From: an uncultured Eubacteriales bacterium
GTDB taxonomy: Bacteria; Actinomycetota; Coriobacteriia; Anaerosomatales; JAAXUF01
Length of the DNA: 64,000 nucleotides
Assembly (NCBI GenBank): GCA_964388455.1
Contig: CAYMAN010000005.1
Location: forward strand, 2,920-66,919
Direction of reading: 5' to 3'
Both the position numbers and the translations under genes were made by a program. Under the pieces are notes generated by a model that saw only the letters and a program-made list of their open reading frames with translations, ran no database searches and had not been told where the DNA came from. This document shows, in pieces, positions 1,948 through 59,852 of this stretch. Position 1 is the first letter of the stretch. Every line of letters starts with the position of its first letter.

Positions 1948-1967
1948 CTGCTATCCTCCTCTCTTTC

Positions 1968-3320: not shown

Positions 3321-3381
3321 GCTTTCCCAAACCTCCTTCACGCACTCCTAGTGCTAGTAAGACTTGCCGAGAACGAGCACG

Positions 3382-5220: not shown

Positions 5221-5276
5221 GTACTGCGTTCCTCCTGGATCGTCACGGCGTACGCCGCAGTGGCCATTCGAGCGGT

Positions 5277-6317: not shown

Positions 6318-6455
6318 GCACAAGTCCTTACCCGTGACGTCGTACGCGCTGGAGCCTGCCGGGGCTCACATGGGGCGCGAAGACTGCTGACTGACAATAC
6401 CTGCGGTGCCAAAGTGCCGTCAACACGACGACGCCTGGCGACACGCAGGACTCAC

Positions 6456-7301
6456 CTACGGAAGCTGCTTTGCGACGGCGATCAGGGCGTTCTTGAGACC
6501 CGCCTGCTTACCGGGATCGGCCGCCATCTCCACCTGGATAAGCACAGCACCTTGCGTGAATGCAAGAATCGCATACCGAGTGTTGTCGGTGCCAAAATAC
6601 GCAGAATGTCCATTGACTTTCACCGTGCTCGCACCCATGGAGTAGGGGCGCTTCGAGTACGCCTCGAGAGCGGCTGCGGCGTAGCCCTTGTCCCGGAACT
6701 GCTCAACGTCGATGACCAGAGCGCGCACCTTGGACCCTGATGCCGGGACGTACTGACGTGTGAGGTTAAAGGCGCCCGCCACTGGCTTGGCCGCCTTGAA
6801 CCCTGTCAAGGTTCCGGGAGCCCACTTCAGCAGCGTTTTGACCGGACCGGTAATCTCGTCGTCACCGGGCTTCGCGGTACCCGTGGTGGGATTGGAGCCA
6901 CCGGATCCGGGGTTCGCAGTGTCGGGTGTCGGCTTCTTGCCGGACTTGATGACGGCCAGCTGCTTTGCCGCCTGACGGAATGCAGGGTCGTCGGCGACGA
7001 TCTGGGCGAGCTTCAACTGCGCTGCGGCCATATCACCCTTGGTGATGTCGGCCTGTGCTGCCGCGTAGAGAGCGTCAAGCTTCTTATGCCGATCACAGGT
7101 GATAGTGACGGTCTCGGCCTTGCGCAGGGTAGCCTCCTCGGCGGGGACGCTCACCGTTTTGATGGTGTTTGAGACGACCTCACCGTAAGTGCAGAGGGTG
7201 CGTGTCCCGGACTGGACCTCAACCTTCTTCTGACAGCCCCCTGTCGCGACCAATGAAGCCGTCAGTGCCGCAAGCGCGAGTATGGATCCAAGACGTCTCA
7301 T
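6456..7301 (-). CDS. Lipoprotein of unknown function
   Basis: MRRLGSILALAALTASLVATGGC is a signal peptide with a lipobox. The ATG 7301 overlaps the upstream stop as ATGA. The track start at 7493 adds an Arg-rich extension that overlaps the upstream gene, so I rejected it. Confidence 0.7.
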   Translation of the reverse strand: MRRLGSILALAALTASLVATGGCQKKVEVQSGTRTLCTYGEVVSNTIKTVSVPAEEATLRKAETVTITCDRHKKLDALYAAAQADITKGDMAAAQLKLAQIVADDPAFRQAAKQLAVIKSGKKPTPDTANPGSGGSNPTTGTAKPGDDEITGPVKTLLKWAPGTLTGFKAAKPVAGAFNLTRQYVPASGSKVRALVIDVEQFRDKGYAAAALEAYSKRPYSMGASTVKVNGHSAYFGTDNTRYAILAFTQGAVLIQVEMAADPGKQAGLKNALIAVAKQLP

Positions 7302-8764: not shown

Positions 8765-8808
8765 AACGAAGCTCCTCCAGGAATGCTGTCGATCGTATCG
8801 TCCACAAA

Positions 8809-8840
8809 GGAAGGGCCGGGAAGCGTTCCCCGGCCCTTCC
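8809..8840 (-). terminator. Very stable GC-rich hairpin between the hexaheme cytochrome gene and the membrane-protein gene
   Basis: GGAAGGGCCGGG..CCCGGCCCUUCC forms a 12-bp perfect stem, extended by 2 bp after a one-nt bulge, with loop GCG. It is followed by UUUGUGG on the minus strand. Confidence 0.5.
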
Positions 8841-8875
8841 GACAGTACCAGACTCTTGATGCATTGAGTGCTGAA

Positions 8876-10114
8876 CTACTTGTTGTGGCAGTTCTCACAC
8901 ACGCCGCGGTTGTCCATACGGAGCAGTGCCGAAGGCGTGCTGGAAACGAACGGCGGCAGGCCCGAGCCAGATGTGTCGACTGAGAAGCCGGACATCTGCG
9001 CGACCGTGCCGTGTGCCCTGTGGCACGTGAGGCACTCGACCCAGTCGGTCGCTGTCGTCGAAGGGTTGCCCTTCTCGGAGAGATTGTTCGCGACCGGAAG
9101 TGCCAGACCAGCTACGTTCAGCGGCGTGGCGGTCGAGTTGTAAGAAGCGAGCTCCACGTTGATCGGGTGCTTGTGGCGCAGCGTCAGCGCGGCCCCATCG
9201 CCAGCGTTATACGTGCTGGCGAGCGACTGGTAGACGACACCCAGGCTGCTGGTGAACTGCTCCGTCGCGTCACCGACATACGTCGAGTGACAGCCGGCGC
9301 ACCAACCGCTCATGCCCTTGTCAGGGTTCTCGACGCCCGTGGCCATGTCATAGCCCTTGGCGTACATCGGAGTGGTGTAGTTAGGCTCGTACGCGGGGTA
9401 GCCGCCAGGATTGTGAAGACGGAAGCCCTTGTCGGGCCATCCGGTCTCTACCGACGAGACGAAGCCGTCTGGCGTCGGGTCGGCCGGGGCGGTAGCGGAT
9501 GTCACGTAGCCACCGACGTAGTTGCCGTTGACGAGCGACTTCAGGATGCGGTAGTTCGAGCTGCCGTGAGGATCATGGCAGGTGGCGCAGTCCATGGCGA
9601 TCTTGTTGGACTCGCCCGCAAGGTTGCTGGTCAGAGGGTTGCCGGTTTCGGTGTAGTTACCGGTCGCACCCGCAGTGCCCTTGCCGAAGTAGCCACCGCC
9701 GTAGGCACCCCACGCGGCACCGTTGGCGATATGCCACGACGTGGTGGCACTATCATCGAAGGACTCAAAGCCACCTGCGTTGAGTATGCCCATGTTGGTA
9801 CCGTAGTCGGTTCCGTAGTACAGACCATCGCTGACGTTGGTATCCGCGCTCTGTCCAGCTGAGTCGTGACACGCGTAGCAGAACTCCTGCATTGTCGTGG
9901 CCGACGAGACCAGCAAAGCACTGTGCTCAGTCGTTCCACTCGCGTCAGTCCACGTGAGCGAACTGACAGAAGTGTGTGCACGGTGACAACCAGCGCAAGC
10001 GTCGGTGTCGTTCACGTAGTTGCCATGGATCGCGAAGTTGGCGAACGCTGCCGAGGGAACGAGGATGGCTGCGAATGCGACGATCGCGAGCAGAATCGAG
10101 AATCTCTTCGTCAT
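8876..10114 (-). CDS. Secreted hexaheme c-type cytochrome
   Basis: Signal peptide MTKRFSILLAIVAFAAILVPSAAFA. Six CxxCH motifs: CAGCH, CYACH, CATCH, CAGCH, CLTCH, CENCH. SD GGGAGGTG. Confidence 0.85.
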   Translation of the reverse strand: MTKRFSILLAIVAFAAILVPSAAFANFAIHGNYVNDTDACAGCHRAHTSVSSLTWTDASGTTEHSALLVSSATTMQEFCYACHDSAGQSADTNVSDGLYYGTDYGTNMGILNAGGFESFDDSATTSWHIANGAAWGAYGGGYFGKGTAGATGNYTETGNPLTSNLAGESNKIAMDCATCHDPHGSSNYRILKSLVNGNYVGGYVTSATAPADPTPDGFVSSVETGWPDKGFRLHNPGGYPAYEPNYTTPMYAKGYDMATGVENPDKGMSGWCAGCHSTYVGDATEQFTSSLGVVYQSLASTYNAGDGAALTLRHKHPINVELASYNSTATPLNVAGLALPVANNLSEKGNPSTTATDWVECLTCHRAHGTVAQMSGFSVDTSGSGLPPFVSSTPSALLRMDNRGVCENCHNK

Positions 10115-10119: not shown

Positions 10120-11010
10120 CTACACCTCCCCGCCGGTCACGGCGTCTGCTTCGTTCTTGGCTCTGCGTGAGGATATCGCCATCAGGCCACCGACTACAAG
10201 CGTCGGAAGCACGACGGCCTTTGCGAGCGAGCCAGTAAGCATGCCACTCACCATCGGAGCGACATGGTCCTCGATGAACGGATCCGCCTTGGGCGGAGCC
10301 AAGAGCGTCTTGCGACTCGCCCAGAACATCGAGTCACCACCGATGACGTTCACGGTGCCGTCGGCGAAGGTGTAGCCGTTGGCGGGATCCTGAACGTATG
10401 CGGCGATGTTGGCGCGAGTGTCCCACATCATGGCCTTCGCAGGACACGTTGAGACGCAGGCCGGCTCGTGAGCGCGACCGGGCGACGCAGCGATCTCGGC
10501 GGCGGTTGCACGGGTCTGCAGGGGCGGAAGGCCTGAGCCTGCCACATCCGCATCGGAACCGGCGCGACCGGCGCACAGGATGCACTTGTTCATCAGCGTG
10601 GACTCATTGCCGATGTAGGGCTTACCGATCTTGGGATAGCCGCCGCGCTGGCAGTTAACCTGGCACGGATACTGACCAAAACGGTCCTTGCACGCTGCCG
10701 GATCACAGAGGTTCGGATCCACGGCAACGGCGCCTGTACTGGGATTCCAGGTCAGGGCAGCCTTGCCGCTCGCGTCCTTGACGGGACACGCACGGGCGCA
10801 AGGAGCGTCGACGCAGTGCCAGCACGAGAACCGAATGAACGGGCCCATGTCGACACGCTTCTGGCTCTTGATCGTCACACGCTGATCATACGCAACGTTG
10901 TGAACGCCGATCGTCTCGGCGCGGATGTTCCACTCGCGCTTACAGGCAACGACACAGCCATTGCACCGCATGCACTTGTCCACATCTTGCAGAATTGCCA
11001 TCACAGTCAT
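10120..11010 (-). CDS. 4x[4Fe-4S] ferredoxin-type electron-transfer subunit (FdnH/DmsB-like) with C-terminal TM anchor
   Basis: Cys clusters CMRCNGCVVACK, CWHCVDAPCARACP, CILCAGR and CVSTCP. C-terminal helix VVLPTLVVGGLMAISS. SD GGGAGGTG. Confidence 0.85.
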   Translation of the reverse strand: MTVMAILQDVDKCMRCNGCVVACKREWNIRAETIGVHNVAYDQRVTIKSQKRVDMGPFIRFSCWHCVDAPCARACPVKDASGKAALTWNPSTGAVAVDPNLCDPAACKDRFGQYPCQVNCQRGGYPKIGKPYIGNESTLMNKCILCAGRAGSDADVAGSGLPPLQTRATAAEIAASPGRAHEPACVSTCPAKAMMWDTRANIAAYVQDPANGYTFADGTVNVIGGDSMFWASRKTLLAPPKADPFIEDHVAPMVSGMLTGSLAKAVVLPTLVVGGLMAISSRRAKNEADAVTGGEV

Positions 11011-11023: not shown

Positions 11024-14000
11024 CTACATCTTCTTGATACGGCAGAGGCAGATCTTGTACTCAGGAATCAAAGTGTTTGCATCCCAGGCATCGATGGTGA
11101 GGTCGTTTGCACGCGAGCCGGTTGAGAGGCCCTTCTCACCCCAGTGCCATGGAATCGCGACTACACCGACGCCTACACGCTGGTTGGTGCTCTGTCCAAC
11201 GCCCACCTTGGCGCGCCAGCCCGCTCCGTAAGGAAGAAGCTTCTGGTCTGCAAGGCCCTCGGTGCGCTTCGTGATGATCTGGACCAAGTCACCATCCTGG
11301 ATGCCGTGGGCACGCGCATCGATGGAGTTGAGCTCGATCCACGGCTCGGGCTCGAGCTCATGGTTGTACGCGTTGTTTCGCGTGATCGGGCCACCCTGGA
11401 AATGCTCGACGCAACGAATCGTGGTGAGCATGAGCGGGTAGGTGTCCACGGTACCGATGGGCGACCGCGCGTCTGAAGTGGTGATCAGGTTCGCGGAGGT
11501 GCCGGTTGTGCCGTTCTTGCCCCACGTGAGCGCGAGCGTAGGCTCTGGGGTCTCGTACGGCTCGGTGTGGCCGGGGAAGCGGCCGGTGAGCACGTGCGGC
11601 GCGGTCGAGCCACCGATGCTGGGCAGATCCTTGAGGTTGTGGTGCTTGCGATAGTTGTTGTTCGCATAGTCCATGAGATCCGTGCTGAGCGTCGAGAAGA
11701 GTCTCGAGACGCGGTCCGGACCCTGGAACCCGTCCATCTGATCGCCAGGAACCTCAGCTGTGGCATCGACCGCTGCATTGTTGTTGTACAGAACGCGACG
11801 GTTGACCAGCCAAGAGTAGCCCCACTTGTGGAAGCCATAGGACTTGTAGGGATCTTCCTGTGAGCGACTCTTCGAGCGATTGGCAACTGTCCATGCAGTG
11901 TAGTCGGCACCGAGACGCGACTTGTTGAGAGTAGAGCTGTACGCCTCGTGGTAGATCCAGATCGTTCCGCCACCGGCGTTTGAGACGACGGTGCACATCT
12001 GGCGATACAACTTCTCCGCGACGTACTCGGCGCCCGTCATCGCGCCCGTCTTGATGCCACCCTCGTGGGTGAATCCGGACTCGGTCGCGTCCTTGAAATC
12101 ATCGACGGTAGCCGTTGCGTTCGGCGTCCAGCCGTACTGGCGACCGAACAGTGAGTCATACACCGATACGAAGGTGCCAGGTGTCGCACCGTCCGTGCTT
12201 GCTGCGAACGCTGCGCCCTTAGTCCATCCGAGACCGCCGGATGCCTTGGCCGTGGTCCACTTGTTCTCGATGTGCGAGAACACGCTCTTCTCGTCAAGCT
12301 TCTTGGCGAGACGAAGCAGCAGCTCGAGATCGGTCTTGCTGTTGCCGCTGGGGAGTTTGGCCTGATAGCGCCACTGCAGTACGCGACCGGAGTTGGTTGC
12401 GCTACCGGCCTGCTCGACGTGCGCGGCAGCCGGAATCAGGTACGTTACTGCACCATCCTTACGCGGAATAGCGGCCGTCTCAGTCTCGAAGACATCCTGT
12501 ACGACCAACAGATCGAGGTTCTTGAGGCCGTCGCGCACCACACCCTGGTTGGGCTCGGTCACGGCCGGGTTCTGGCCAAGAATGAACGCAGCCTTCGTGC
12601 CGCCTGCGACCATCTTGCGGAACATGGAGATGTGATCATCGCCGTTACCCTTTGGCCAGAGGTCGTACACAGCGTTGACCTTCGTGCGCCTGTCGGCGAT
12701 GGCTGCCGTGGCGGCGTCATCAACGTAGTCGTCGGCACCAGCGGCGTAGTTCGGAGCGAACCACCGCATGGTCATGTTGTAGAAGCCCTTGGACTGCAGG
12801 TTCAGGGGTCCCGTGCCTACCAAGCCCCATGTGCTACGAGTGAACGCGTCATCGTACGGGTTGGTGCCCATGTTCATGCGGTTGCCCCACAGGCCGTCCA
12901 TGTACTTACCGAACGCATTGACGTCATTCTTAGTCGAGTCCGAGTGACCAGCGCTCATCACCGTCGGGTTGCCCGAGTACGCAGGGATGTTGCCGAACAG
13001 CAGACCCATATCCGTGGAGCCCTGAACGTTGTGGATTCCACGAAGGGCGTTGATTCCGCCGCCCGCACGACCCGCGTTACCCAGAATGGTCTGGAGGTTG
13101 GCGAAGCCCTTGACGTTCTGCGAGCCACACGTGTGCTGGGTGATTCCCATTGCGTAGAGAATCGTGGTCGCACGATAGCCGGATGCGTAGGGCGTCTTGA
13201 CAAGACCCGTCAGCGGATCCGCGTCGCCTGCGCCGGTGTAGCTAGCCATGCGGCTGTGCTTGATCATTTCTTCGGCAACCGCAACAAGCTCGGCCGGGGT
13301 ACACCCGCAGATATCGGCAACAGTGGCCTCGTCATACGGTGCGACCTGGGCTTTGAGCTTCTGGAAAACACTGTCCGCATCGGTGATGTCGTTCGCGGCA
13401 ACAGGAAGCGCCGTGAACTGGAATGCAGCGTCCCACCAGCCCATACCGAAGTACAGGTTTGCCAGGCTATCTGAATACCAGAGTGCCCAGCTGGTACCGA
13501 CCTGGGCGACCACTGGACGCGCGGTGCCTGCGCTGGCGGTCACGCCCGGCAAACCCTTGATGTAACCGGTCAATCCGGCAGCCACAACAGGCCGCGTGAA
13601 GGTCAGGCCATCGGCGGAAGTTGCCGTGCTGATCTTCTGGATCTGATCCGTCAAGCTGTACCCAACGTACAGGAGCTGGTATGCAGCGCCGTTCTTGACA
13701 ACCATCGGGTGCATGACGCGATAGCTATCCCAGCCAGTCGCCGCAGGTGAAAGAGCCGGTACGGGACCGCCGACGACAGCCTCGAACGAGGCGTTGAAGG
13801 TGGTTGCGTCCCAGGTACCGGGCGCGTCCGTCGTGAAGCCCTGATACAGCTTGTACTCAGCGGCTGGATTCCCACGACCCTGGAAGTAGAGGCGATATGT
13901 CGCTCCATCCTTCAGGACCATAGGACGGTCGTACTTGTAGATGGTCATGCCCGCACTGTCGGTGACAGGTGTCGTCACCGGATCGAGGATGACGGCTTCG

Positions 14001-15526
14001 GCGCCCCATGTCAGGCCATCAGCAGAGCTGCGAATGGTGAGTTTACGATCCGCATCGTTGTTGACCATGTAGTACACGCCGGACTCAAGCCAGACGAACG
14101 GTGCATCGGCGCCGTCGGAGACGTTGGTATCGACACCCGTCGTCCACGTGTTGCCGTCCTTGGAGGTCGCGAACTGGATGTTCGTCTCCGCGCCTACAGC
14201 CGAGACGTACCACATCTTGTACTTCTTGGCGGCGTCAGTCTCCGCTGCGTCAAACACAACTGTCGGTGTGTTAGCGGCATATCCGGTTGCAGCAGCCTTG
14301 TTGTAGCGCTGATAGTCGCTGCCCACCGAGTTGATCTTCAGGCGTGCATCGGTGTACTTGGAGCGATCCGCGGCCGTAGCTACGCCGCCCCTAGCACCGT
14401 CGGGGATGAACGTCTGCGTCTGCTTCTGGTTAAGGAAGGCGTCGAAGTGAGTCTTGTACTTCTCCGTTGCAGCTGCGCCGTCCGCGATGTTGTTGATGAT
14501 GTAACGAATCAGGCCGTTCTGGAACGCGATGTCTGTTCCGGGACGGATACGCACATACATGTCCGCCTGCGTCGCGGTGCGCGTCTTGCGCGGATCGATG
14601 ACGATCATCTTCGCCGCGGGCTTTGCACTTATGTCGCCGTTAGGCAGAACCTGGTTGGCGGTCTTGGCGCGGTTGATGTGCGCCATGCACGCCGGATGGT
14701 TCTCTGCCGGATTAGCTCCCCACGCGATGACAAGCGTCGAGTTCGCGATATCTGTCCAGCTGTTGGTCATTGCTCCACGTGCGAATGCGGCGGCCAGACC
14801 GGCCACCGTTGACGAGTGTCATATTCGCGCCTGATGCTCGACGTTGCTGGTACCGAAGTTCGCGATGAGTTTGCGGTACAGATAGTTGCCTTCGCTGTTC
14901 ATGTGCGAACTACCGAAGAACGCAACGCCCTTACTGTTGTAGCCGTTCGCGGCCGACGGTGCTGAAACACCGGCGCCACCAACGTTGTCACGTGCGGCCT
15001 TGAGGCCGTCTGCGATCTCATCCATCGCCTGGTCTAGCGGCATCGCCGTCCACGCGGTGTTAACGCCTGATGCAGTTCCTGTGGACTTGTACGCGACGCC
15101 GTTAGGAGCAGCCGGGTCGGCAAGGAAGGCATTGCTGCCTGCAGGGTGGTTGAGACTGCCGCCGAGCTCAGGCGAGCCAGCTTCCCACGCACCGATACGA
15201 CGAGAGTTGTTCACGAGCTGAAGAGAGCCCGCACCCTTGGAGCACAGACCGCCGGTATTGAAGACGGACTCGAAATCGCCATAGATGTCGACGACCTTGC
15301 CAGATGATTTCTCAACGACTACTCGCTGCCCGCAACTAGCGGAACAGTAAGGACAGGTGGTTGTGGTGATCGTGTAGGCGGCCATTCCCTCGTACGCCGC
15401 TGCCTTTGCAGGGTCGTATGCGAAGTTGAGACCGCAACCAACCACCGCTGTTGCAGCAGCGGATGACTTCAGAAAGTCTCTACGTGAGAGTCCTGAGGCC
15501 CCCTGCCCGGTGTCTTTAGTTGCCAT
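11024..15526 (-). CDS. Tat-exported selenocysteine-containing molybdo/tungstopterin oxidoreductase, formate dehydrogenase (FdnG)-like, 1500 aa with internal beta-propeller-like insertion
   Basis: Track ORFs 14819..15526 and 11024..14806 are in the same frame and separated only by TGA 14819-14821. The joined reading is ...NVEHQARI-U-HSSTVAGLAAAFARGAMTNSW, which matches the FdnG/FdhF Sec context. Tat signal SRRDFLKSSAAATAVVG. N-terminal FeS motif CPYCSASCG...C. C-terminal pterin-binding region ...LTTIRCVEHFQGG... Confidence 0.85.
14789..14807 (-). promoter_or_regulatory. SECIS-like hairpin 11 nt 3' of the UGA codon
   Basis: GGUGGCC-GGUCU-GGCCGCC forms a 7-bp stem with one G-U pair. The GGUCU loop resembles the E. 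coli fdhF SECIS apical loop. Confidence 0.65.
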
Positions 15527-15705: not shown

Positions 15706-15792
15706 CTAGAACCCATATTGGACAGCCCTCTTCCCTTACCCGGGGAAACACGAGCATGGGCGAGCCGTGGTGACCGGGGCTCGCCGTACTCG

Positions 15793-15893
15793 CAGTCTCC
15801 TTTCCAAGTGGGGAGGCGCCACCGTTTCCAGTGACACCCCGGCCCGACAACCATGGCGCGGATGCGCTGTAGGTCCGAAGGGCTCGGAGACTG
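15793..15893 (-). ncRNA. Moco/Tuco-riboswitch-like element in the FDH-operon leader
   Basis: An 8-bp closing stem CAGUCUCC...GGAGACUG encloses CUCCGAGCC, an internal GGAAACGG loop, GCGCCUCCCC and UUGGAAAGG. These are the conserved blocks I recall from the Moco RNA motif. A paralogous element lies at 34340-34442. Confidence 0.6.
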
Positions 15894-15948
15894 TCTTATT
15901 CGGTTGAATCAAGCACGATCTACGCGTTCACGACCCTGTGAGGTCGAG

Positions 15949-16009
15949 TTTGTAACACGTGTTACAAAGACCGCACATGTATCGTAATCCTCGCTTGCAG
16001 ACCTGTCAA
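15949..16009 (-). promoter_or_regulatory. Sigma70-like promoter plus palindromic operator of the FDH-like operon
   Basis: -35 TTGACA (16004-16009), 17-nt spacer, -10 TACGAT (15981-15986). A perfect 20-bp palindrome TTTGTAACACGTGTTACAAA lies at 15949-15968. Confidence 0.65.
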
Positions 16010-16046: not shown

Positions 16047-17543
16047 CTAGCGTTCATTCTGCCGATCGTTTGCGCCGAAATATCGTGCAATGAACTGCTC
16101 CGCATCAAATGTGCCAATCTCCGCTAAACGCGCAAGGCGCCGGAGATCCAAATCCTCGGTGCACAGACCCCGAGCACGATCAGCAAGTGCAAGGAGAATC
16201 GCCTCGCGCTCACCGATGTCGAGCTTCTCGCGCATCGCACGCACATCGGACTCCGAGTACTCCTCGGCCTGGATAAGCGTGCCAAGATCGACGTCGCCAA
16301 CGATGCGGCCCGCGTATAGCGCGTGGTCCATCTCAGGACAGAGCAGACGCAGCTTGCGCTTGGAGGCCACTTCGGCGATCACATCGCGCTGAATGAGCAC
16401 CTCGACGAACTCCGGTGAGACGACTAGGCGGACCTTTCTGAGCATCAACGGAATCAGGAGCAGAAGGAGCGGCAGGAGACACAGCGCCCAACCCCACGGC
16501 GTGCTGGGGGTGACAACTCTCGGGATGGGAGCAACCGGCCAGCCCCATACCTGGACCTGATCGTTCTCGCGGTCGGTGACGTAAATGCGGCCGTTCTTAT
16601 CGAGCGCCACATCTGCGGGATAGTTGAACTGACTGGGACCAAATCCCTTGGAACCGAACTGAACCAGCTGCTTGCCATCGAGATCGTAGATGTCCACGAC
16701 ATGTGCGAGAGCGTCGACCGCGAACAGATGCTTGGAATCCACAGCCAGACCGCGAGGAATACCCGATGAGTCGATGATGCGGATCAATTCGCCGGTTGGC
16801 TTGAACACCTGAATGCGACGGTTGTTGGAATCCGAGACGTAGACAGCGCCGTTCTTCGCCACAGCGATACCACTTGGAAAGAAGAACTCGCTCGGCGAAT
16901 CGATCACCGAGTTGGCCTGAACTGTCTTGCCGAACGTGACCGTTCGGCTGCCCTCGGTGGAGAAGAAGATGACTCTGTGTCGGTCCGTTGCGCCGACATC
17001 AGTGACTCTCGGCGCACCTGATGTGTCAAAGGAGATTGCCAGTGGAGCCCAACTGAACTTGGGTTCACCCTCCGGCGTGAACGTCCTCAGGTACTTACCC
17101 TCGAGGTCGTAGACGTAGATGGTCCTGAAGCGGCGCTCGGTTACCCACACCTCGGAGCCCTTGATGGCGACGTTCACTGGCGAGCGAAGTCGACCCTTGC
17201 CAGTGGTGCCGAACGAGAAGAGATACCTGCCGCGCGGAGCGAACACGCTCATCCGCCGATTGCCCGCGTCAACGACGTACACGCGGCCATCCGCGCCGAT
17301 ATCGACTCCGGCAGGGCGTCTGATCTGACCCTTGCCTTCGTCTCCGGTGATGGAGAACAGATACTGCGGCGCTGTCAACGCCGCTTGTGGCTCTCCCAAC
17401 TTCACAGACGGCAGGCTCTGGTTCCTCACAAAGTAGAACGTCGCATATGAAAGCAACGCGAGCAGCAAGAGGAGCAGAGCAAGCAGGATGACACGTTTGC
17501 GCTTCTGACGACGAGTTAGAGGCTGACGCGTGCTACTTGCCAT
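16047..17543 (-). CDS. Bitopic membrane protein: TM, NHL-repeat beta-propeller, TM, PIN-like C-terminal domain (paralog B)
   Basis: Same architecture as 3718..5220. Blades include VYVVDAGNRRMSVF, VWVTERRFRTIYVY, VYVSDSNNRRIQVF and IYVTDRENDQVQVW. TM2 is ALCLLPLLLLLIPLML, followed by RK. The start overlaps the upstream TPR gene by 11 nt. Confidence 0.8.
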   Translation of the reverse strand: MASSTRQPLTRRQKRKRVILLALLLLLLALLSYATFYFVRNQSLPSVKLGEPQAALTAPQYLFSITGDEGKGQIRRPAGVDIGADGRVYVVDAGNRRMSVFAPRGRYLFSFGTTGKGRLRSPVNVAIKGSEVWVTERRFRTIYVYDLEGKYLRTFTPEGEPKFSWAPLAISFDTSGAPRVTDVGATDRHRVIFFSTEGSRTVTFGKTVQANSVIDSPSEFFFPSGIAVAKNGAVYVSDSNNRRIQVFKPTGELIRIIDSSGIPRGLAVDSKHLFAVDALAHVVDIYDLDGKQLVQFGSKGFGPSQFNYPADVALDKNGRIYVTDRENDQVQVWGWPVAPIPRVVTPSTPWGWALCLLPLLLLLIPLMLRKVRLVVSPEFVEVLIQRDVIAEVASKRKLRLLCPEMDHALYAGRIVGDVDLGTLIQAEEYSESDVRAMREKLDIGEREAILLALADRARGLCTEDLDLRRLARLAEIGTFDAEQFIARYFGANDRQNER

Positions 17544-18537
17544 TGTTCACCTTTTCCAGACCGGCCTTCGCCGACGCATTGTTGGGTTCGATCACCAGGA
17601 CGCGCTGATACATCTCTGCGGCATGCTTCTTGGCACCCGTCTTGACCGCCAGGTCGCCGAGCAGGATGAGTGCCTCGACGTTCTGTGGTTCAAGAGCCAC
17701 CGCGATGCGTGCCTCGATCAGCGCGGCTTTGGGGTCCTTGGCTGCCTTGGTCTTGGCCGCGGCGAGGCGATCACTGAAGGGCCCGAGCTCATCCAGTGCA
17801 TCCTGCGGCAAGTCCACATTGGGGGCCGCGGCGATCGACGTGCGCAGGTGTTCTGCGGCCCCGGCCTTGTCGCCGTCCTTGAGGAGGAGGAGTGCGTAGT
17901 CGTAGTTCGCCTCGGGCATCTTGGGGTCGAACAGCAGCGTGTTCTCGAGCTCCTCGCGGTACTTTGAATCAGAACCCAGCTTGCTGTAGGTGAAAGCCAA
18001 TGCATAGTGCGTGTCCGAGGCGTCGCGTCGGAGAAGAATGGCCTTCTTGTAGTAGTTCGCGGCCTCCTCGTACTCCTTCTGCTCCATGAGCGCAGTGCCC
18101 AAGTAGAAGTACGCGATCTCGAGTTGCGCATCCGGACCGCTCTTGTGCTTGGGCTCGAGTATCGCGATCACTCGGCGGAAGTACGTCTCCCCCTCGGCGA
18201 ACTGCTTGCGCTGCAGGGCGAGAAAACCGATGCCTGAGATCGCAGGCGCGAAGTCCTTGCTGATCTTGAGTGCGGCCTCGTACTGCACCACCGCGTCCTT
18301 GTCCCGACCGGCGACCGCGAGAGCCTGCGCGAGCTGCATGCGTGCGTCGATGTCATTGGGGTTCTTGCGAACCCTGGCCTCGACAGCAGCGACCGCGCGC
18401 GCAGCGGGCGTTGAGTCAACGATCTGACGGCCCTGAGCCCAGACCGAATAGCCAAGATATGCGCCAAGAACAAGCACCACAACGGCTATGGCTGCTATGA
18501 CGGCGTCAAGCGGGCGGATGTTTCTGACAGTGGACAC
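17533..18537 (-). CDS. Membrane-anchored TPR-repeat protein (paralog B)
   Basis: N-terminal TM AVIAAIAVVVLVLGAYLGY followed by TPR-like repeats, e.g. ALKISKDFAPAISGIGFLAL and TLLFDPKMPEANYDYALLLL. GTG start with SD AAGGGAG. Confidence 0.75.
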   Translation of the reverse strand: MSTVRNIRPLDAVIAAIAVVVLVLGAYLGYSVWAQGRQIVDSTPAARAVAAVEARVRKNPNDIDARMQLAQALAVAGRDKDAVVQYEAALKISKDFAPAISGIGFLALQRKQFAEGETYFRRVIAILEPKHKSGPDAQLEIAYFYLGTALMEQKEYEEAANYYKKAILLRRDASDTHYALAFTYSKLGSDSKYREELENTLLFDPKMPEANYDYALLLLKDGDKAGAAEHLRTSIAAAPNVDLPQDALDELGPFSDRLAAAKTKAAKDPKAALIEARIAVALEPQNVEALILLGDLAVKTGAKKHAAEMYQRVLVIEPNNASAKAGLEKVNNGK

Positions 18538-18580
18538 GCGAGTCTCCCTTGTGGGTTGCAGCCCGTAAACAGTGAGCGTG

Positions 18581-20221
18581 CTAGATGTTCAGGTCGGTAT
18601 GGCAGCGCAAGCACAACGACGCTCCGGGATACGGAGCGATGATCTGATTCTGATAGTCGACCGCACCGTGGCAGCCATAGCACAAGCGAACGTCGTGCCC
18701 TGCGTTCGGCAGACTCCCGGCGGTCCCATCGTGCGCTGGCGACGACGCAGCGGTTGAGAACCCGATATGGCAGTCATCACAAGTGTACGGCTTCCCATCG
18801 TACGGTTTGCCACCTCGGGTCGTTCCGGTTTTGAAGTGCACGGCGTGCTCGGCGAAGCCCTTGTTCTTGATGGAAGTGGGCGGCTTCTTCGTCATCTCTT
18901 CATGGCACGGTACGCAGTTCTTCGAGATGAGCTCCGCCTTGGCGACCTTCTGGTGGTGGCAGTTCTGACACGTGGCCCGATTCGTGTGGCACACATTGCA
19001 GTCATCGGTCGTCACGCCGGGAGCCGGCCGGTGATTCTCGATCCAGCCGGTGGGGTGCGGCATGACGGTCTTGTGGCATCGCTGGCACGACTTCGCGTCA
19101 TGACACGAACCACACGCGCCCTTGCCGCCAAGGTACAGCGGTCCGTGCTTGGTCTTCCAGTCGGCCTTGAGATGGTCCTTCGGTACGACCGACTTGGCGG
19201 GCGCATTTGGCGATTCACTCTTGCCTGTGTGGCACTTCACACAGAAGGCGGACTTGTGACACATGGCGCAGTACGCAGGGTCAGCGTTGGCCGTCTTCTG
19301 GTGTTTGCCCCGCACAAACGACTTGGTGTGATTCTTGGGAACCAGGTCGAAGCTCTTGGGGTGGCACTTGAGACACGCGTCCCCGGCGACGAGCCCCTGT
19401 GTCGAATGCTCGAGCCCGTGGCACCGGTAGCAGGACAGCATCTCGGGCTTGGTCGCGCCATCTGCCGTGTGTCCGAACGTCGGGTGGCACACGCTGCATT
19501 TGTAGTTGCGCTCGACGTGCGCCGAGTGGGCGAAGATGAGCGGCCCGGGCATGAAAGCGTCAAGATTGGGATGGCAGTAAGAGCACTGCGACATCGTCGT
19601 CGAACCCGTCGGATAGATCTTGATCGATGGGTCTTTCGCCTTCTCGGTGATTATTGAAGCGTATGTGGGAGGCATGGGCGGGATATCGAGATTCTTGTCC
19701 TTGTGGCAGACGTCGCAGTCTTTGACGGACTCATGGCACATCATGCACTGGTTGACACCGGAATCGTTGGCGACGTCGGCGTGGGGCTTGTTGGGCCAGT
19801 CTTTGACGTGACTCTTGGGGCGCAGCGTCTTTGACTTCGTGTGGCACTTGTTGCACTCGGCGGTTGCGAGTTCGCCCTGAGGTCCATGCGAAACGCCGTG
19901 GCACGCGAAGCACACTTCCATCGGGACCGTCTCCGTGACGCCGTCCCGGTGGGGCATGCGGGCATGGCAACCGTCGCAAGCGACCATGAGATGGTTTCCG
20001 TGGCTGAAGATCAATCCCGGCTGGTTGACCGAGCCCAAGTCGAGGTGACACGGCACGCACTGTGAGCGGTCGACGGAAGCTGCGGTGTCGATGACCGGAT
20101 CGGGCGAACCTGGTGTCGCGGCCAATCCGAAACGCACAGAAGCAAGCAGGAAGGCGGCCACGAGAACAGTCGCGGCCACCCCCCAAACCCAGTTATGTCG
20201 ATTGTGTCGTGCGTCAATCAC
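18581..20221 (-). CDS. Membrane-anchored multiheme c-type cytochrome, 20 CxxCH motifs
   Basis: N-terminal TM VWGVAATVLVAAFLLASV. I count 20 CxxCH motifs, from CVPCH and CDGCH through CYGCH and CLRCH. GTG start with SD TAGGGAG. Confidence 0.85.
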   Translation of the reverse strand: MIDARHNRHNWVWGVAATVLVAAFLLASVRFGLAATPGSPDPVIDTAASVDRSQCVPCHLDLGSVNQPGLIFSHGNHLMVACDGCHARMPHRDGVTETVPMEVCFACHGVSHGPQGELATAECNKCHTKSKTLRPKSHVKDWPNKPHADVANDSGVNQCMMCHESVKDCDVCHKDKNLDIPPMPPTYASIITEKAKDPSIKIYPTGSTTMSQCSYCHPNLDAFMPGPLIFAHSAHVERNYKCSVCHPTFGHTADGATKPEMLSCYRCHGLEHSTQGLVAGDACLKCHPKSFDLVPKNHTKSFVRGKHQKTANADPAYCAMCHKSAFCVKCHTGKSESPNAPAKSVVPKDHLKADWKTKHGPLYLGGKGACGSCHDAKSCQRCHKTVMPHPTGWIENHRPAPGVTTDDCNVCHTNRATCQNCHHQKVAKAELISKNCVPCHEEMTKKPPTSIKNKGFAEHAVHFKTGTTRGGKPYDGKPYTCDDCHIGFSTAASSPAHDGTAGSLPNAGHDVRLCYGCHGAVDYQNQIIAPYPGASLCLRCHTDLNI

Positions 20222-20244
20222 GCGGGTATCAGACTCCCTAGCGA

Positions 20245-21585
20245 CTAGTCGCCGCCCAGCCCACGAATGCGGGCGATCAGTTGAAGCAGTGCGTTCTGTT
20301 CCTGGGCCTCGCCCTTACGATGGATCAGTTCGCCCGCGGCGGCACCGAACTCCTCGCTCGATCCCTTGTGGCAACCTTCCTGGCCGCACGTCGTGCCGAT
20401 GTTCTTGGTCGAGACGCTGGATGCGGCATTCGCACTAGGAAGAACCTCGTGCGCCTCATGGCACTGCCAACATGCGGGTGAATCTGCGGCGCCGTTCTTG
20501 TATGCACGCCCATGATAGTAGTCATTGTACGTCGCGTAATCGTCGCCGTGCTGCTTACAGCGGGCGCAGGTGCGATAAGCCGATCCATGCATACGCAGCT
20601 TGCCGGCCTCTGTCGCGGTACTGTAGATGAAGTGACCGCCGTGGCAGGATGCGCAGGTGGCCGACTCGTAGTCACCTTCGAGCAGCTTCTCGGAGTGAAC
20701 CGACTTGCCGTACTCGGCGACCGGGTCCTTGAGCTTCGGCTCCTCGAGATCCTGATGGCACGTGCCACACGCGATGCCGGCGTTGATGTTCCATAGCTTG
20801 GTCACACCTGGCTTGTCGTCGTAACGATAGTCCGGGTGACACTGCTGGCATGTGTTTTCGCGGTGCGCAGAGTCATCGACTCCGGCCACCTCGAACGATT
20901 TGGCTGCGCCGGCCGACTGCTTCAAGAGCGTCGAACTGCCGTGACACGACTGACAGCCGTTGTCACTGTCGAAGTCCCACCCGGTCGACGGGGTCCAGTC
21001 GATGTTCTCGCGGAGGTGACAGTCCACGCAGTCGGCAGCCTTATGACACATCATGCACTTGGTGTTGAGCGCATCGTTCGAAGGCTTGACGTGCGGTTTC
21101 TGTGCCCAATCCGCGGTGTGGAAGGCGGGGCGAAGACGCCACTTAGGCGTCACGTGACAGGCATCGCAATTGTCCTTGGCGATGATACCCATCGAGCCGT
21201 GGCGCAGTCCGTGGCAGTCGAAACAGCCCTTCATGGTCGGGCGCTCAGTGCCGGTCTTACGGTGAGGGAATCGCGGGTGACAACCGCTGCACTGCACGAT
21301 GATGTGGTTGCCGTGCGAGAACTTGATCGACGATGAGTAATTCTTGGAAAGTGCGATGTTGCCGTGACACAACGTGGTGCACGCTGCACCATCGACCTGC
21401 GAGCCAGCGAGCTGGTCGAAGAGCTGTGTGATAGAAGCGGAGCCCGTCGTGAGATCGATCTCGTCGACCGGCACGGCGTCCGCAGCGAAGACGAACGACG
21501 TTGATGCGATAACGGTACAGAACGCTGCCGTCGCGAGTGCGAAGGCGAGCAGCCTGCCGGGGCGTGCTCTGAACCTGAAGGTCAT
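20245..21585 (-). CDS. Secreted multiheme c-type cytochrome: 10 CxxCH plus CX3CH, CxxCK and CX4CH sites
   Basis: Signal peptide MTFRFRARPGRLLAFALATAAFCTVIASTSFVFA, from ATG 21585 with SD GGAGAAGGGG; the track start 21816 is rejected. Variant motifs are CTTLCH, CARCK and CGQEGCH. The N-terminal half is homologous to the 20-heme protein and the C-terminal part to the 7-heme protein. Confidence 0.8.
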   Translation of the reverse strand: MTFRFRARPGRLLAFALATAAFCTVIASTSFVFAADAVPVDEIDLTTGSASITQLFDQLAGSQVDGAACTTLCHGNIALSKNYSSSIKFSHGNHIIVQCSGCHPRFPHRKTGTERPTMKGCFDCHGLRHGSMGIIAKDNCDACHVTPKWRLRPAFHTADWAQKPHVKPSNDALNTKCMMCHKAADCVDCHLRENIDWTPSTGWDFDSDNGCQSCHGSSTLLKQSAGAAKSFEVAGVDDSAHRENTCQQCHPDYRYDDKPGVTKLWNINAGIACGTCHQDLEEPKLKDPVAEYGKSVHSEKLLEGDYESATCASCHGGHFIYSTATEAGKLRMHGSAYRTCARCKQHGDDYATYNDYYHGRAYKNGAADSPACWQCHEAHEVLPSANAASSVSTKNIGTTCGQEGCHKGSSEEFGAAAGELIHRKGEAQEQNALLQLIARIRGLGGD

Positions 21586-33418: not shown

Positions 33419-33442
33419 CAGGCTACCCGTCCCCGGTTGCTG

Positions 33443-34336: not shown

Positions 34337-34339
34337 ATG

Positions 34340-34442: not shown

Positions 34443-34484
34443 TGGCCGCGCGGGTGCGCGACGGATTCCAGCATAGCGCACGAC

Positions 34485-46680: not shown

Positions 46681-46838
46681 GCACAACCACCTTTACCCGT
46701 GACGCTTCACGAAGACCTCACCGCGGCCGTTGTCCGGCGTCCGCGCTGGGATTCGATTCTATCACCGTTCAGGCGCGTGGCCTTCTCGGCGGGGATTGAC
46801 CTGCAACCTTCGTGCCGCGGTGACGTGGCGGCGATCGA

Positions 46839-50456: not shown

Positions 50457-50553
50457 TGGCGGAAGCGTGTGCGAATCGAACACACCCGGGAGGCTCTTCA
50501 CCCCCCACACTGGTTTTGAAGACCAGGGGCCCCACCAGGAACCATCCGCCTCC
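50457..50553 (-). tRNA. selC: tRNA-Sec (anticodon UCA), 97 nt with encoded CCA
   Basis: Minus-strand sequence: GGAGGCGGAUGGUUCCUGGUGGGGCCCCUGGUCUUCAAAACCAGUGUGGGGGGUGAAGAGCCUCCCGGGUGUGUUCGAUUCGCACACGCUUCCGCCA. It has a 6-bp D-stem with a 4-nt loop, an anticodon loop CUUCAAA, a long variable arm (6-bp stem), a T-arm GUGUG-UUCGAUU-CGCAC, and a 7-8 bp acceptor. An upstream TTGACA-17-GACAAT promoter lies at 50563-50591 and a downstream hairpin at 50419-50439. Confidence 0.85.
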
Positions 50554-54949: not shown

Positions 54950-56860
<1,911 letters not shown>

Positions 56861-56867
56861 CCTGGCG

Positions 56868-58268
56868 CTACGCTCCCAGAATCTCGCCGAGACGCGCGAC
56901 GACCGTGTCCGACTCGTCGGCACACAGCAGCGTGCGGGGGTCGATGAGGAGACGACCGTCCTTCACGCGCGCGATGATCGCCGGCTCCGCGCCGAGGCGC
57001 AGTCGCGACTCGAGATCTCCGACGCTCAGCGCGGCGGGTGCAACCGTCACGACGACGGTCGGGATCTCGGCCAGCGGCAGCGATCCGCCGCCGGCGCGCG
57101 CGATGTCGTCTACGCACTCGACCGTCGCCGCGCTTCCCACCGTCTCGCGAATGCGTGCGGCGAGCGCCTCGGCACGTACACGGACGTCGGCCTGAGGCTC
57201 GGTCAGCATTCGCAGCGTGGGGATGTCTTTGAGCGCGCGCTCCTCGTCGAGGTATGCACGCAACGTGGCCTCAAGCGCGGCGAGCGTCATCTTATCGAGC
57301 CGCACCGCACGCGCCATGGGGTGCTTCTTGAGCCTGGCGATGATCTCCCACCGGCCAACCAGGATGCCTGCCTGCGGTCCGCCCAGCAGCTTGTCGCCCG
57401 ACGCCGATACCAGGTCCGCCCCGGCCGCGATCGACGCGCCCACCGTAGGCTCATCGGGCAGGCCGTACTTCGCGAGGTCCACGAGCACACCCGAGCCCTG
57501 GTCCTCGAACACCGGCACACCCTGCGATGCGCCAAGCTTCACGAGGTCGGCAAGCGAGACCTCCTCGGTGAATCCGACCACGCGGTAGTTGCTCGAGTGA
57601 ACCTTGAGCAGCAGCCCCGTGTTCGCCGTCATCGCGCGTTCATAGTCCGAGAGGTGCGTCTTGTTGGTGGCGCCGATCTCGACCATCGTCGCGCCGGACT
57701 CGCGCATGATGTCCGGGATGCGGAAGCTCCCGCCGATCTCGACGAGCTGACCGCGCGACACGATCGCTTCCTTGCCGCGCGACAATGCCGCGATGCCGAG
57801 CATGACGGCTGCGGCGTTGTTGTTGACGGCCATCGCCGCCTCGGCGCCGGTGAGTCGACACAGCAGCGACTCCACATGCGCATGACGGCTGCCGCGCTCA
57901 CCGCTGTCGACGTCGTACTCCAGCGTCGAGTAGCTGGCGGCTACCTCCTGAACGGCGGCCGCGGCCTTCTCGGAGAGCACGCTGCGGCCGAGGTTGGTGT
58001 GCACGATGATGCCGGTGGCGTTGATGACCCGGCGCAGTGACGGCCGAGCAGCGAGTGCCGCGCGCGTCACGGCCTCGAGGGCGACGCTCGAAGCAGCGGG
58101 CTCGAACACCTCGCCGGCGAGCAGCCGTGCTCTGGCATCCTCGATCGCGCCGCGCACCGCGTCGAGAACGATCGCTCGTGGGTATACCGCCAGCGCGTCG
58201 GACAGCTCGGGCGTCGCAAGGACGTCGTCGGTCTTGGGAAGCGTTCGGAGTAGCGCATTAGTATCCAT
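56868..58268 (-). CDS. selA: L-seryl-tRNA(Sec) selenium transferase SelA
   Basis: LLRTLPKTDDVL N-terminus, INATGIIVHTNLGRS, and PLP-Lys context SGDKLLGGPQAG. The start is ATG 58268; ATG 58316 and the track start 58343 are alternatives. Confidence 0.85.
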   Translation of the reverse strand: MDTNALLRTLPKTDDVLATPELSDALAVYPRAIVLDAVRGAIEDARARLLAGEVFEPAASSVALEAVTRAALAARPSLRRVINATGIIVHTNLGRSVLSEKAAAAVQEVAASYSTLEYDVDSGERGSRHAHVESLLCRLTGAEAAMAVNNNAAAVMLGIAALSRGKEAIVSRGQLVEIGGSFRIPDIMRESGATMVEIGATNKTHLSDYERAMTANTGLLLKVHSSNYRVVGFTEEVSLADLVKLGASQGVPVFEDQGSGVLVDLAKYGLPDEPTVGASIAAGADLVSASGDKLLGGPQAGILVGRWEIIARLKKHPMARAVRLDKMTLAALEATLRAYLDEERALKDIPTLRMLTEPQADVRVRAEALAARIRETVGSAATVECVDDIARAGGGSLPLAEIPTVVVTVAPAALSVGDLESRLRLGAEPAIIARVKDGRLLIDPRTLLCADESDTVVARLGEILGA

Positions 58269-58342
58269 AGCTGGGATTCTACCCGACCCGTGCGCCGCGT
58301 GATGCAGCGACGGCATTTCCGTCGTGTATGACTCGTTAGCCA

Positions 58343-58678
58343 TCAGCCGACGGTCAGCACGTCATCTGCCATAAGCGCTGCCACTGCATCCGCCATGATT
58401 CCGACCTCACCGATCGCCAACCGATCCTTCAGGCCCAGGTAGTCGAGGCAGGTGCCGCACGCCTTGATCGGCACACCCTTCTCAGCGAGCAGTGTCAGAT
58501 CGTCGAGCGAGGTCGATCCTTCGCATGCGAGGAGCACGCCGGCGTTCATCAGCGTCACGGCGACCGGTGTCTCGGCGTTCCGTGCGAGCGTGTAGAGGAA
58601 GTTCCTCATGAGAACCGTACCAAGCTCATCGTCGCCATGCCCGATGCGATCGGAGGTGATGAAGACTCGTTTGGACAT
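58343..58678 (-). CDS. DsrE-like selenium-metabolism protein (C-terminal-half YedF-like)
   Basis: MSKRVFITSDRIGHGDDELGTVLMRNFLYTL...MNAGVLL...LAEKGVPIKACGTCLDYLGL. ATG 58678 with SD GAGGAG. It lies between selD and selA. Confidence 0.7.
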   Translation of the reverse strand: MSKRVFITSDRIGHGDDELGTVLMRNFLYTLARNAETPVAVTLMNAGVLLACEGSTSLDDLTLLAEKGVPIKACGTCLDYLGLKDRLAIGEVGIMADAVAALMADDVLTVG

Positions 58679-58811: not shown

Positions 58812-59852
58812 CTAGCGGACGACGATGCGCCCGGGAGTGTCAGCGATGCAGCGACCTATGCGCGCACCCAGCACTCCACGCGCGGCGAGTTCCGCCGCCA
58901 GGCGATCAGCGTCCTCAGTGGGTACCGCGATCATGAGGCCGCCGCTGGTCTGCGGGTCGCAGAGGATCCGCATCCACGTGCCCGGCTCGGACGCTCCTGC
59001 CCACAGCACGAACTCGTCGGCCCACGCGACCACGTCGGCTGTTCGCCCCGGAACGACTCCTTGCTCGGCGAAGTCAGCGACGCGGTCGAAGAGTGGCACG
59101 GCGGCAACGTTCAGCTCGGCGCCACATCCGCTCGCTTCGACCATCTCGTGTAGGTGACCGAGAAGCCCGAATCCGGTGACGTCTGTGCACGCGCTGACGC
59201 CGACCTCCACCATCGCCTCGCACGCGAGACGGTTCAGGGCCGCCATAGCCTCGATGCAGTCGCGCGCGGTCTCCTCGTTCTCCAGACCCTGCTTCAACGC
59301 GGTCCCGATGATGCCGGTTCCGATCGGCTTGGTAAGGAATATCTCGTCGCCCGCCCGCGCGCCGCGGTTGCGAACGACCCTGTCGGGATGAACGGTACCG
59401 AACACGGAAAGCCCGAACTTGGGCTCCTTATCGTCGATGGTATGACCGCCAACAGTGACCGCGCCGGCCTCGGTGACCTTTTCGGCGCCTCCGCGGACGA
59501 CTTCGCCCACGATGTCGGCGCCCATTGAGCACGGGAACGCGAGCAGGTTCATCGCCGTCAGCGGACGGCCGCCCATCGCATAGATGTCGGAGAGCGAGTT
59601 CGCCGCGGCTATCCGCCCGAAGTCGTACGGGTCATCCACGATGGGCGTGAAGAAGTCCACGGTCAGCAACGCCGCCATGTCATCTGACAGTCGATAGACC
59701 GCGGCGTCATCGCTCGTCTCGAAGCCGAGGATGAGCGCGTCGGACTGACCGGGAGCGATCTTGTCGAGCACTGCCTGGAGGTCCGCCGGACCCCACTTCG
59801 CCGCTCAACCAGCTTTGCTTGAGAGTTGCGTAAGTCGCACGCGCTCAGTCAT
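58812..59852 (-). CDS. selD: Selenide, water dikinase SelD, itself a selenoprotein (in-frame TGA at 59805-59807)
   Basis: The track ORF starts at 59771. Upstream in the same frame: ATG 59852 (SD GGGAGGTG), then MTERVRLTQLSSKAG-U-AAKWGPADLQAVLDKI..., which matches the SelD N-terminal LTQxSxxxG(C/U)xxK motif. A candidate hairpin lies at 59778-59794. Confidence 0.85.

Follow-up and report, generated by a model that had tools for sequence, protein, structure and literature searches.

Two long open reading frames (ORFs) on the minus strand of a 64,000-nucleotide stretch of contig CAYMAN010000005.1, from an uncultured bacterium placed in the Anaerosomatales (Coriobacteriia; the whole stretch is called the window here), raise the question of whether the TGA that separates them ends a gene or is read through within one. 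ORF 15526-14819 encodes a twin-arginine translocation (Tat) signal and an Fe4S4 domain, and ORF 14806-11024 the pterin-binding domains, of a catalytic subunit resembling that of formate dehydrogenase (FDH). An earlier note, made from the DNA letters, had proposed that the two form a single selenoprotein gene. From the sequence of the locus and of its relatives, we conclude that the two ORFs are almost certainly one gene, fdhA, whose UGA at 14821-14819 would be decoded as selenocysteine (Sec) 236. Directly observed were an unbroken frame, homology on either side of the UGA, the place where Sec falls, a conserved UGA with a conserved hairpin behind it, and the genes of the decoding machinery; from the sequence we infer that Sec is actually inserted at U236.

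Read on the minus strand, the junction is CAG GCG CGA ATA TGA CAC TCG TCA ACG GTG GCC GGT CTG GCC GCC GCA, continuing as TTC GCA CGT GGA GCA ATG ACC AAC AGC TGG, and the peptide at this point is NVEHQARI-*-HSSTVAGLAAAFARGAMTNSW. The TGA occupies 14821-14819, the ORFs 14819..15526 and 11024..14806 share one frame, and translation of 15526-11024 gives 1500 codons with codon 236 as the sole internal stop. What the earlier note had stated about the letters (the position of the TGA, the shared frame, QARI-*-HSSTVAGLAAAFARGAMTNSW, a protein of 1500 residues and residue 236) is borne out in every respect. A tryptic peptide across U236 would span I-U-HSSTVAGLAAAFAR. The features of the joined gene are the following.

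11024..15526, minus strand: fdhA, from ATG at 15526 to a TAG stop at 11026-11024, encoding a 1500-residue FDH-like catalytic subunit of the molybdenum/tungsten-bis-pyranopterin guanine dinucleotide (Mo/W-bisPGD) type
15440..15490, minus strand: predicted Tat export signal SRRDFLKSSAAATAVVG (Pfam PF10518, 23.7 bits against a cut-off of 22.7)
15206..15370, minus strand: N-terminal [4Fe-4S] domain, CPYCSASCG...C (Pfam PF04879, E 1.6e-9)
14819..14821, minus strand: the UGA codon, U236, predicted ligand of Mo or W, which aligns on Sec192 of FdhA in 8cm4 and 9rk1
14816..14818, minus strand: His237, predicted catalytic histidine after Sec, aligned to the corresponding His of Desulfovibrio vulgaris FdhA; the U-H motif occurs in all 70 sequences of the comparison described below
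13040..13042, minus strand: Arg829 in GGINALRGIHNVQGSTD, predicted active-site arginine (ALRG), aligned to NALRGESNVQGSTD of D. vulgaris FdhA

With the stop replaced by Cys, a Pfam search of the joined protein recovered TAT_signal, Molybdop_Fe4S4, Molybdopterin (PF00384, E 1e-36) and Molydop_binding (PF01568, E 5e-15), arranged as is usual in periplasmic formate dehydrogenases. When it was compared with all PDB chains by phmmer, the tungsten- and Sec-containing FdhA of D. vulgaris matched best (E 3e-94 to 1e-92), followed by the FDH of D. gigas (6e-87) and FdnG of Escherichia coli (3e-76). The alignment of the joined 1500-residue protein to these enzymes, which the earlier note had put forward as a check, holds across the junction: it runs in five collinear blocks from residue 13 to residue 1499, on both sides of the UGA, and the stop falls on the X (selenocysteine 192) of EHQARI-X-HSPTVPALAESFGRGAMTNHW in D. 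vulgaris, so that EHQARI-U-HSSTV here stands opposite EHQARI-X-HSPTV there. The motif common to the two is EHQARI-X-HS.TV..LA..F.RGAMTN. The Arg829 column is invariant in the 31 homologues aligned, within NALRG-x-x-NVQGSTD. D. vulgaris Hildenborough FdhAB (W/Sec; PDB 6sdr, 6sdv, 8cm4) is the best structural relative of the window protein and shares with it the Tat signal, the Fe4S4 domain, the Sec motif, the catalytic His and Arg, and a small iron-sulfur beta subunit.

The codon itself is conserved among homologues without exception. A scan of one genome per species of the GTDB returned 75 loci, nearly all from Coriobacteriia, Anaerosomatales or metagenome-assembled genomes labelled 'Actinomycetota', most of which match query residues 1-1500 across the stop. 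For the comparison of codon and hairpin, we used the 69 loci that contain the region together with the window, giving 70 sequences. The aligned codon is TGA in 70 of 70, without a single TAA, TAG or sense codon, and in each case it is in frame within EHQAR[IL]-*-HS; genuinely split homologues, which the earlier note had named as a finding that would overturn its proposal, do not occur among the 69 loci. Public protein predictions lead to the same conclusion from another angle: in 118 of the 120 best matches only a C-terminal part is called, starting immediately past the UGA, and the FDH alpha subunit of this Coriobacteriia/Anaerosomatales-type clade is systematically mis-called in public annotation. 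The other two of the 120, P0005 and P0006, are full length and carry Cys. The DNA of P0005, which is metagenomic, has TGC at this position in a single ORF of 1303 codons, and its hairpin is degenerate, with GGG CUU replacing GGU CUG and decayed arms. P0005 is therefore the partner in a classical Sec/Cys pair in which the Sec insertion sequence (SECIS) was lost in the Cys form.

In the window, the region behind the UGA contains the following elements, numbered with a plus sign from the U of the UGA.

14789..14807, minus strand: apical SECIS hairpin, stem GGUGGCC/GGCCGCC (+15..+21 with +27..+33), presumed to be the part that binds SelB
14800-14796, minus strand: hairpin loop GGUCU (+22..+26) in the minimum free energy fold
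14766..14824, minus strand: SECIS as delimited by Rfam SECIS_3 (RF01989, model positions 1-59 of 59), with the UGA and the lower helix inside it

ViennaRNA predicts the hairpin, which begins 11 nucleotides (nt) past the UGA, lengthens it by a C14-G34 pair, and places the UGA itself within a small lower stem; the 7-bp stem, GGUCU loop and 11-nt spacing described in the earlier note are thereby recovered at 14807-14789. Both the position of the hairpin and its loop are far from chance. There are 1745 TGA triplets on the two strands of the window, and a 7-bp stem at +15..+33 follows only 2 of them, with a GGUCU loop at fdhA alone; conversely, the fdhA copy is the only one of 131 GGTCT pentamers in the window to cap a 7-bp stem. 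In the minimal SECIS of E. coli fdhF, the upper stem-loop lies 11 nt from the UGA and spans nt 15-31, and U17, G23 and U24 are essential (PMC8659212). These three are invariant in 70 of 70 sequences of the clade, as are G22, C25 and U26, and the fdhF-like loop that the earlier note described is in this sense upheld. In all 70 the loop encodes Gly with GGU, a codon that makes up 26.6% of the Gly codons of the same genes, and this fixation cannot stem from protein constraint.

The stem also varies in ways that preserve pairing. Pair 18-30 is GC in 56 distinct sequences, CG in 4 and UA in 1, and is never unpaired; in the lower helix, pairs 7-45 and 9-43 have also changed at both positions. Covariation over the whole structure is 0.063 compared with 0.023 +/- 0.006 for shuffled alignments, a value that none of 500 shuffles reached. 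The hairpin is predicted individually in all 70 sequences. When a single fixed structure was imposed on 69 sequences, helix 2 was only 74.5% paired because 27 sequences carry a 1-nt register shift, and the two classes were then treated separately. They correspond to two peptides at nt +25..+39, LAAAF in 43 sequences and LGRTF or LGRAF in 27, which differ by a compensated 1-nt frame shift. In the shifted class, the 3' arm GGCCGC lies one nt further downstream, so that the loop has 6 nt or a G22.U27 pair forms; each of the six core positions is paired in 26-27 of the 27 sequences. The 3' arm of the SECIS is better conserved as RNA than is the peptide that it encodes.

By its stem-loop starting at nt 15, the placement of U17, G23 and U24, and the loop GGUC(U), the element resembles that of E. 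coli fdhF and the SECIS_3 family. It differs from both in its closing pair (C-G or G22.U26 rather than A-U), in that U17 can pair with G31 rather than bulging out, and in a weak lower helix; the register-shifted subclade, with its 6-nt loop, departs from them further. We take it to be an fdhF-type SECIS, which would bind SelB for read-through of the UGA.

Several observations weigh against this picture and must be set beside it. The hairpin is not exceptionally stable for its composition, with z = -1.67 and 15 of 200 shuffles folding equally well in a sequence of 64.5% G+C. The covariation comes from a small number of related sequences, in a region under strong protein-coding constraint, and is suggestive rather than decisive. 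A search with a SECIS model, which the earlier note had put forward as a check, supported it in part: SECIS_3 matched over its full length (54.7 bits, E 1.3e-12), but the score falls short of the gathering score of 63, mainly through mismatches in the lower helix, which is weaker here than in the majority of homologues (C41). At the gathering threshold, nine homologous loci scanned with Rfam likewise gave no match to a SECIS family, implying that the SECIS elements of this clade are systematically sub-threshold for SECIS_3. For the protein, the best NCBIfam families are TIGR01553 (FDH-N alpha; 432.6 bits), NF041513 (actinobacterial FDH; 386.7) and TIGR01591 (325), and all three equivalog cut-offs (814.2, 1400 and 666, respectively) are missed, in part because insertions split the match into five stretches. 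Finally, the evidence at the fdhA locus is at the level of sequence.

As the equivalog cut-offs are missed, the name formate dehydrogenase rests on the active-site motifs and the best matches; by these FdhA is FDH-like, without being an equivalog by NCBI rules, and formate or CO2 would be its substrate. A Sec-containing Mo/W enzyme with another physiological substrate, such as a further reductase of an extracellular electron-transfer cluster, would fit these missed cut-offs as well as the large insertions and the unusual hexahaem partner described below, and Khomyakova et al. weighed alternative roles for the complex iron-sulfur molybdoenzymes of this order, tying a cluster of molybdopterin oxidoreductase and multihaem genes to Fe(III) reduction (PMC9686372). 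We nevertheless consider a different substrate unlikely, since the best PDB and NCBIfam matches are all formate dehydrogenases, with nitrate, thiosulfate and dimethyl sulfoxide reductases scoring far lower, the Sec-His pair and the FDH active-site Arg are invariant in the clade, and cultured Anaerosomatales grow on formate (PMC9686372).

If the TGA were instead a real stop, the locus would be a split gene or pseudogene, with an N-terminal fragment holding the Tat signal and FeS domain and a separate C-terminal catalytic fragment starting at GTG 14806. Mechanical ORF calling does yield two ORFs, 118 of 120 of the best public gene calls are C-terminal fragments only, and TGA is the normal stop of 4 of 22 other genes in the window. 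A disrupted gene, however, would hardly keep TGA in 70 of 70 sequences, never as TAA or TAG and never out of frame. Restarting at GTG 14806 would also lose the H-S-S-T between TGA and GTG, including the conserved catalytic His, and would place initiation inside the conserved hairpin at a codon without a ribosome-binding site of its own; neither fragment would hold the metal ligand, and the Cys homologue P0005 is a single ORF. We regard a split gene as very improbable. A sequencing or assembly error in the window can be dismissed outright, as the same codon is found in 69 independent assemblies and, in another data set, the 97%-identical protein fragment P0001 likewise begins immediately past the UGA.

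As for the decoding machinery, the earlier note had listed selA, selB, selC and selD in the window, and all four are there, with scores above the curated cut-offs.

50461..50553, minus strand: selC, tRNA-Sec with anticodon UCA (Rfam RF01852, 72.8 bits against 47; tRNA-SeC according to ARAGORN)
54950..56923, minus strand: selB, Sec-specific elongation factor (TIGR00475, 367 bits against 242, full-length match)
56868..58343, minus strand: selA, selenocysteine synthase (TIGR00474, 596 bits against 268)
58343-58795, minus strand: YedF-like selenium-metabolism gene between selD and selA (TIGR03527, 118.6 bits against 110)
58812..59852, minus strand: selD, selenophosphate synthetase (joined protein 382 bits on TIGR00476 against 125)

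The match of the YedF-like protein is limited to the C-terminal, DsrE-like half of the TIGR03527 model. The selD gene has an in-frame TGA of its own at 59807-59805 on the minus strand, in RLTQLSSKAG-U-AAKWG, at the active-site Cys/Sec position and with a hairpin after the UGA, so that mechanical ORF calling starts the gene too late, at GTG 59771; to judge from these features, selD is a second selenoprotein gene in the window. A crude scan for more in-frame TGA junctions, based on G+C content at third codon positions, returned only artefacts of adjacent genes and missed the true cases. A general reassignment of UGA was considered and rejected, as TGA ends selB, the yedF-like gene, an EAL gene and the tupB-like gene, and the genetic code is standard. 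Stop codons of the 22 confidently identified genes are TAG in 14, TGA in 4 and TAA in 4; that TAG should be the commonest stop is unusual for a genome of 64.5% G+C.

With these parts, decoding would be expected to proceed as in E. coli fdhF. The mRNA just 3' of the UGA would form the hairpin, its loop presenting G23 and U24; SelA and SelD would produce Sec-tRNA(Sec) from the selC tRNA, and SelB loaded with Sec-tRNA(Sec) would bind the hairpin and deliver Sec to the ribosome in competition with RF2, leaving Sec 236 as a metal ligand. FdhA would then be the Tat-exported catalytic subunit of a formate dehydrogenase or CO2 reductase of the Mo/W-bis-pyranopterin family.

The genes and signals around fdhA bear on its partners and its metal.

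15981..16009, minus strand: candidate sigma-70-like promoter, TTGACA-17-TACGAT, upstream of the riboswitch (a consensus match only, at 10 of 12 positions)
15781..15900, minus strand: molybdenum or tungsten cofactor (Moco/Tuco) riboswitch aptamer in the fdhA leader, with P3 deleted (RF01055, 64.8 bits against a gathering score of 36)
10120..11010, minus strand: fdhB, 4Fe-4S electron-transfer subunit (Pfam Fer4_11, Fer4_9, Fer4_7)
8876..10114, minus strand: hexahaem c-type cytochrome with a signal or anchor peptide and six CXXCH motifs (Pfam Paired_CXXCH_1; MtrC/MtrF-like)
34328-34446, minus strand: second P3-less Moco riboswitch, preceding the tupA/tupB-like genes (RF01055, 54.0 bits against 36)
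33443-34378 and 32705-33442, minus strand: tupA/tupB-like genes of a tungstate ABC transporter

In homologous loci fdhB directly follows fdhA, and the order fdhA, fdhB and six-haem ORF is kept in nearly every one of them; the leader riboswitch sits at the same place in nine of the nine homologous loci tested. P3-less variants of this riboswitch are said, in work by Regulski and colleagues from 2008, to accompany tungsten-cofactor genes. The two P3-less riboswitches, the tup-like transporter and a tungstoenzyme as the closest solved relative make tungsten the likelier metal of FdhA, and sensing of the tungsten cofactor the likelier role of the riboswitch, which would gate transcription.

FdhB has a single C-terminal hydrophobic segment, residues 258-277, predicted to be a membrane helix, and the mature enzyme would consist of FdhA and FdhB, facing the outside of a monoderm Coriobacteriia cell. 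In having a Sec-containing, Tat-exported alpha subunit and, in its beta subunit, a membrane helix at the C-terminus, it recalls E. coli FDH-N (FdnGHI; PDB 1kqf). In FDH-N, menaquinone is reduced by the gamma subunit, a dihaem cytochrome b, whereas the third gene of the window operon encodes a hexahaem cytochrome c. Compared with D. vulgaris FdhAB, the operon adds this cytochrome gene, and the host is a monoderm actinobacterium that, unlike D. vulgaris, has no periplasm. The likeliest redox partner of FdhAB is the co-transcribed hexahaem cytochrome c, not a cytochrome b, and the enzyme would either oxidize formate during metal respiration or reduce CO2 with electrons from outside. Cultured Anaerosomatales use Fe(III), sulfur or thiosulfate to oxidize formate or H2, and they possess clusters of multihaem and molybdopterin-oxidoreductase genes (PMC9686372). 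In Coriobacteriaceae sp. EMTCatB1, the operon 1c0408, 1c0407 and 1c0406 (Kobayashi et al. 2021, PMC7943316) is the orthologous locus L061, with a TGA at the same codon of fdhA, followed by fdhB and the six-haem cytochrome; on an electron-donating biocathode that produces methane, its FDH genes and the multihaem cytochrome beside them belong to the most highly transcribed genes.

Further genes of the window are listed here.

1-3347, minus strand: small and large subunits of a Tat-exported hydrogenase (best NCBIfam matches of the [NiFeSe] type, both under cut-off)
3718-6365 and 16047-20314, minus strand: two similar NHL/TPR gene pairs flanking the FDH operon, each with a membrane-anchored NHL-repeat propeller and a TPR protein
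7301-8875, minus strand: 12-helix membrane protein without a Pfam match
43138-46692, minus strand: 1184-residue surface protein with propeller signals of the BNR/sortilin type, four Flg_new_2 repeats and three cell-wall-binding (CWB2) domains
50616-52205, plus strand: 19-20-haem cytochrome with an NrfH-like N-terminus, adjoining tRNA-Sec

The large subunit of the hydrogenase runs off the start of the window, and its C-terminal Sec/Cys codon lies outside. A 20-haem cytochrome lies upstream of one NHL/TPR pair, and the 12-helix membrane protein is located between the pairs, as is a lipoprotein-like ORF without a Pfam match. The C-terminal half of the 19-20-haem cytochrome is built of near-identical repeats, F.HP...S.C.SCHNRPSGH.SGSC..CH. 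The arrangement around the FDH operon looks like an extracellular electron-transfer island, and the 1184-residue protein is probably an S-layer or wall-anchored protein of the monoderm envelope.

The protein itself also departs from the classical pattern, being ~490 residues longer than classical FdhA/FdnG (1500 residues compared with ~1010 in D. vulgaris). Relative to the D. vulgaris alignment, there are insertions at four sites, and the extra length is mainly due to the largest, an inserted beta-propeller.

13412..14275, minus strand: predicted five-bladed beta-propeller insertion, residues ~418-705 (~290 residues), of the GH130/GH43 superfamily by predicted fold

It falls in the alignment gap between chain residues 290 and 370. 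The insertion taken alone has no sequence match in Pfam or the PDB, and none to GH130 or GH43 at E <= 0.1. Its AlphaFold2 model is all-beta (pLDDT 77, pTM 0.82), and Foldseek placed five-bladed GH130 and GH43 enzymes at the top of its PDB matches (E ~1e-9, TM ~0.6, probability 1.0), at an identity of 11-17%; these enzymes (PDB 9fj8, 4qqs, 7fip) have the fold in common with the insertion and only that low level of identity. A library-wide phmmer search with the insertion found 1331 relatives, the nearest of which outside FDHs carry Pfam GH130 or GH43, so that Pfam membership of the insertion is only transitive, via the relatives P0122, P0123 and P0144.

Within the clade, FdhA ranges from ~1145 to 1600 residues, with variable segments between conserved anchors. 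The propeller is confined to the window, P0001-P0004, P0014, P0035, P0080 and L001, at identities down to 31%, and is absent from classical FDHs and most clade members; the EMTCatB1 FdhA, of 1147 residues, lacks it, unlike the window protein. Eight insert-bearing FDHs have Asp-box-like structural motifs in common, and in the aligned segment the only invariant charged residues inside their propellers are D129 and D196, with no invariant Glu, Arg, Lys or His. The lack of an invariant Glu or basic residue would make glycosidase or phosphorylase activity unlikely, and the propeller would be a non-catalytic binding or scaffolding module. Other parts of the protein vary as well. L045 (6637-10461) has ~290 extra residues between NVQGSTD and WPKG, P0005 and P0080 have an Ala/Gly/Thr-rich segment of ~100 residues, and differing unannotated insertions occur at two or three further hot spots in L039, L041, L044, L045, L067, P0005, P0006 and P0080. 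Pfam scans of L045, L041, L060, L039, L067, P0010 and P0005 named no other insertion, and a precomputed PF27730 label was not reproduced in a Pfam scan.

Taken together, these features permit a wider proposal, which we put forward tentatively and regard as possible rather than probable. In a small sublineage, the exported Sec/W FDH may have gained a non-catalytic propeller, and such modules might hold the enzyme to the wall or S-layer of the monoderm cell or set its orientation there, or dock it to the NHL, TPR or multihaem proteins encoded nearby, with FdhAB and the hexahaem cytochrome serving as a surface formate/CO2 terminal of extracellular electron transfer. A search of the papers at hand for a beta-propeller insertion in FDH found nothing relevant. 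If the proposal is true, a propeller-bearing surface unit of FdhAB and hexahaem cytochrome would represent a metal-dependent FDH of novel architecture.

The recoding itself is textbook, as bacterial selenoproteins have their archetype in the FDH alpha subunit, and the window gene adds to a fully known system, here in a little-studied group of Coriobacteriia. Points specific to the clade are the obligate TGA in all sampled species, the truncation in annotation, the register shift, the propeller, the hexahaem partner and a Sec-containing selD. Selenocysteine is unmentioned in the two papers that discuss the FDH of this clade, PMC9686372 and PMC7943316 (0 occurrences in the latter). The clade also offers a clean natural data set for the evolution of SECIS elements, with a Sec/Cys pair in which the hairpin was lost and a register shift that spared the RNA arm. 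For an FDH, a propeller insertion and a hexahaem partner are out of the ordinary, and they could be of interest to those who engineer CO2-reducing enzymes on electrodes. For the organisms themselves, an obligate selenoprotein that is probably also a tungstoenzyme predicts requirements for selenium and tungsten in cultivation, and the same requirements would be expected for the formate- and electrode-driven metabolism proposed for the clade.

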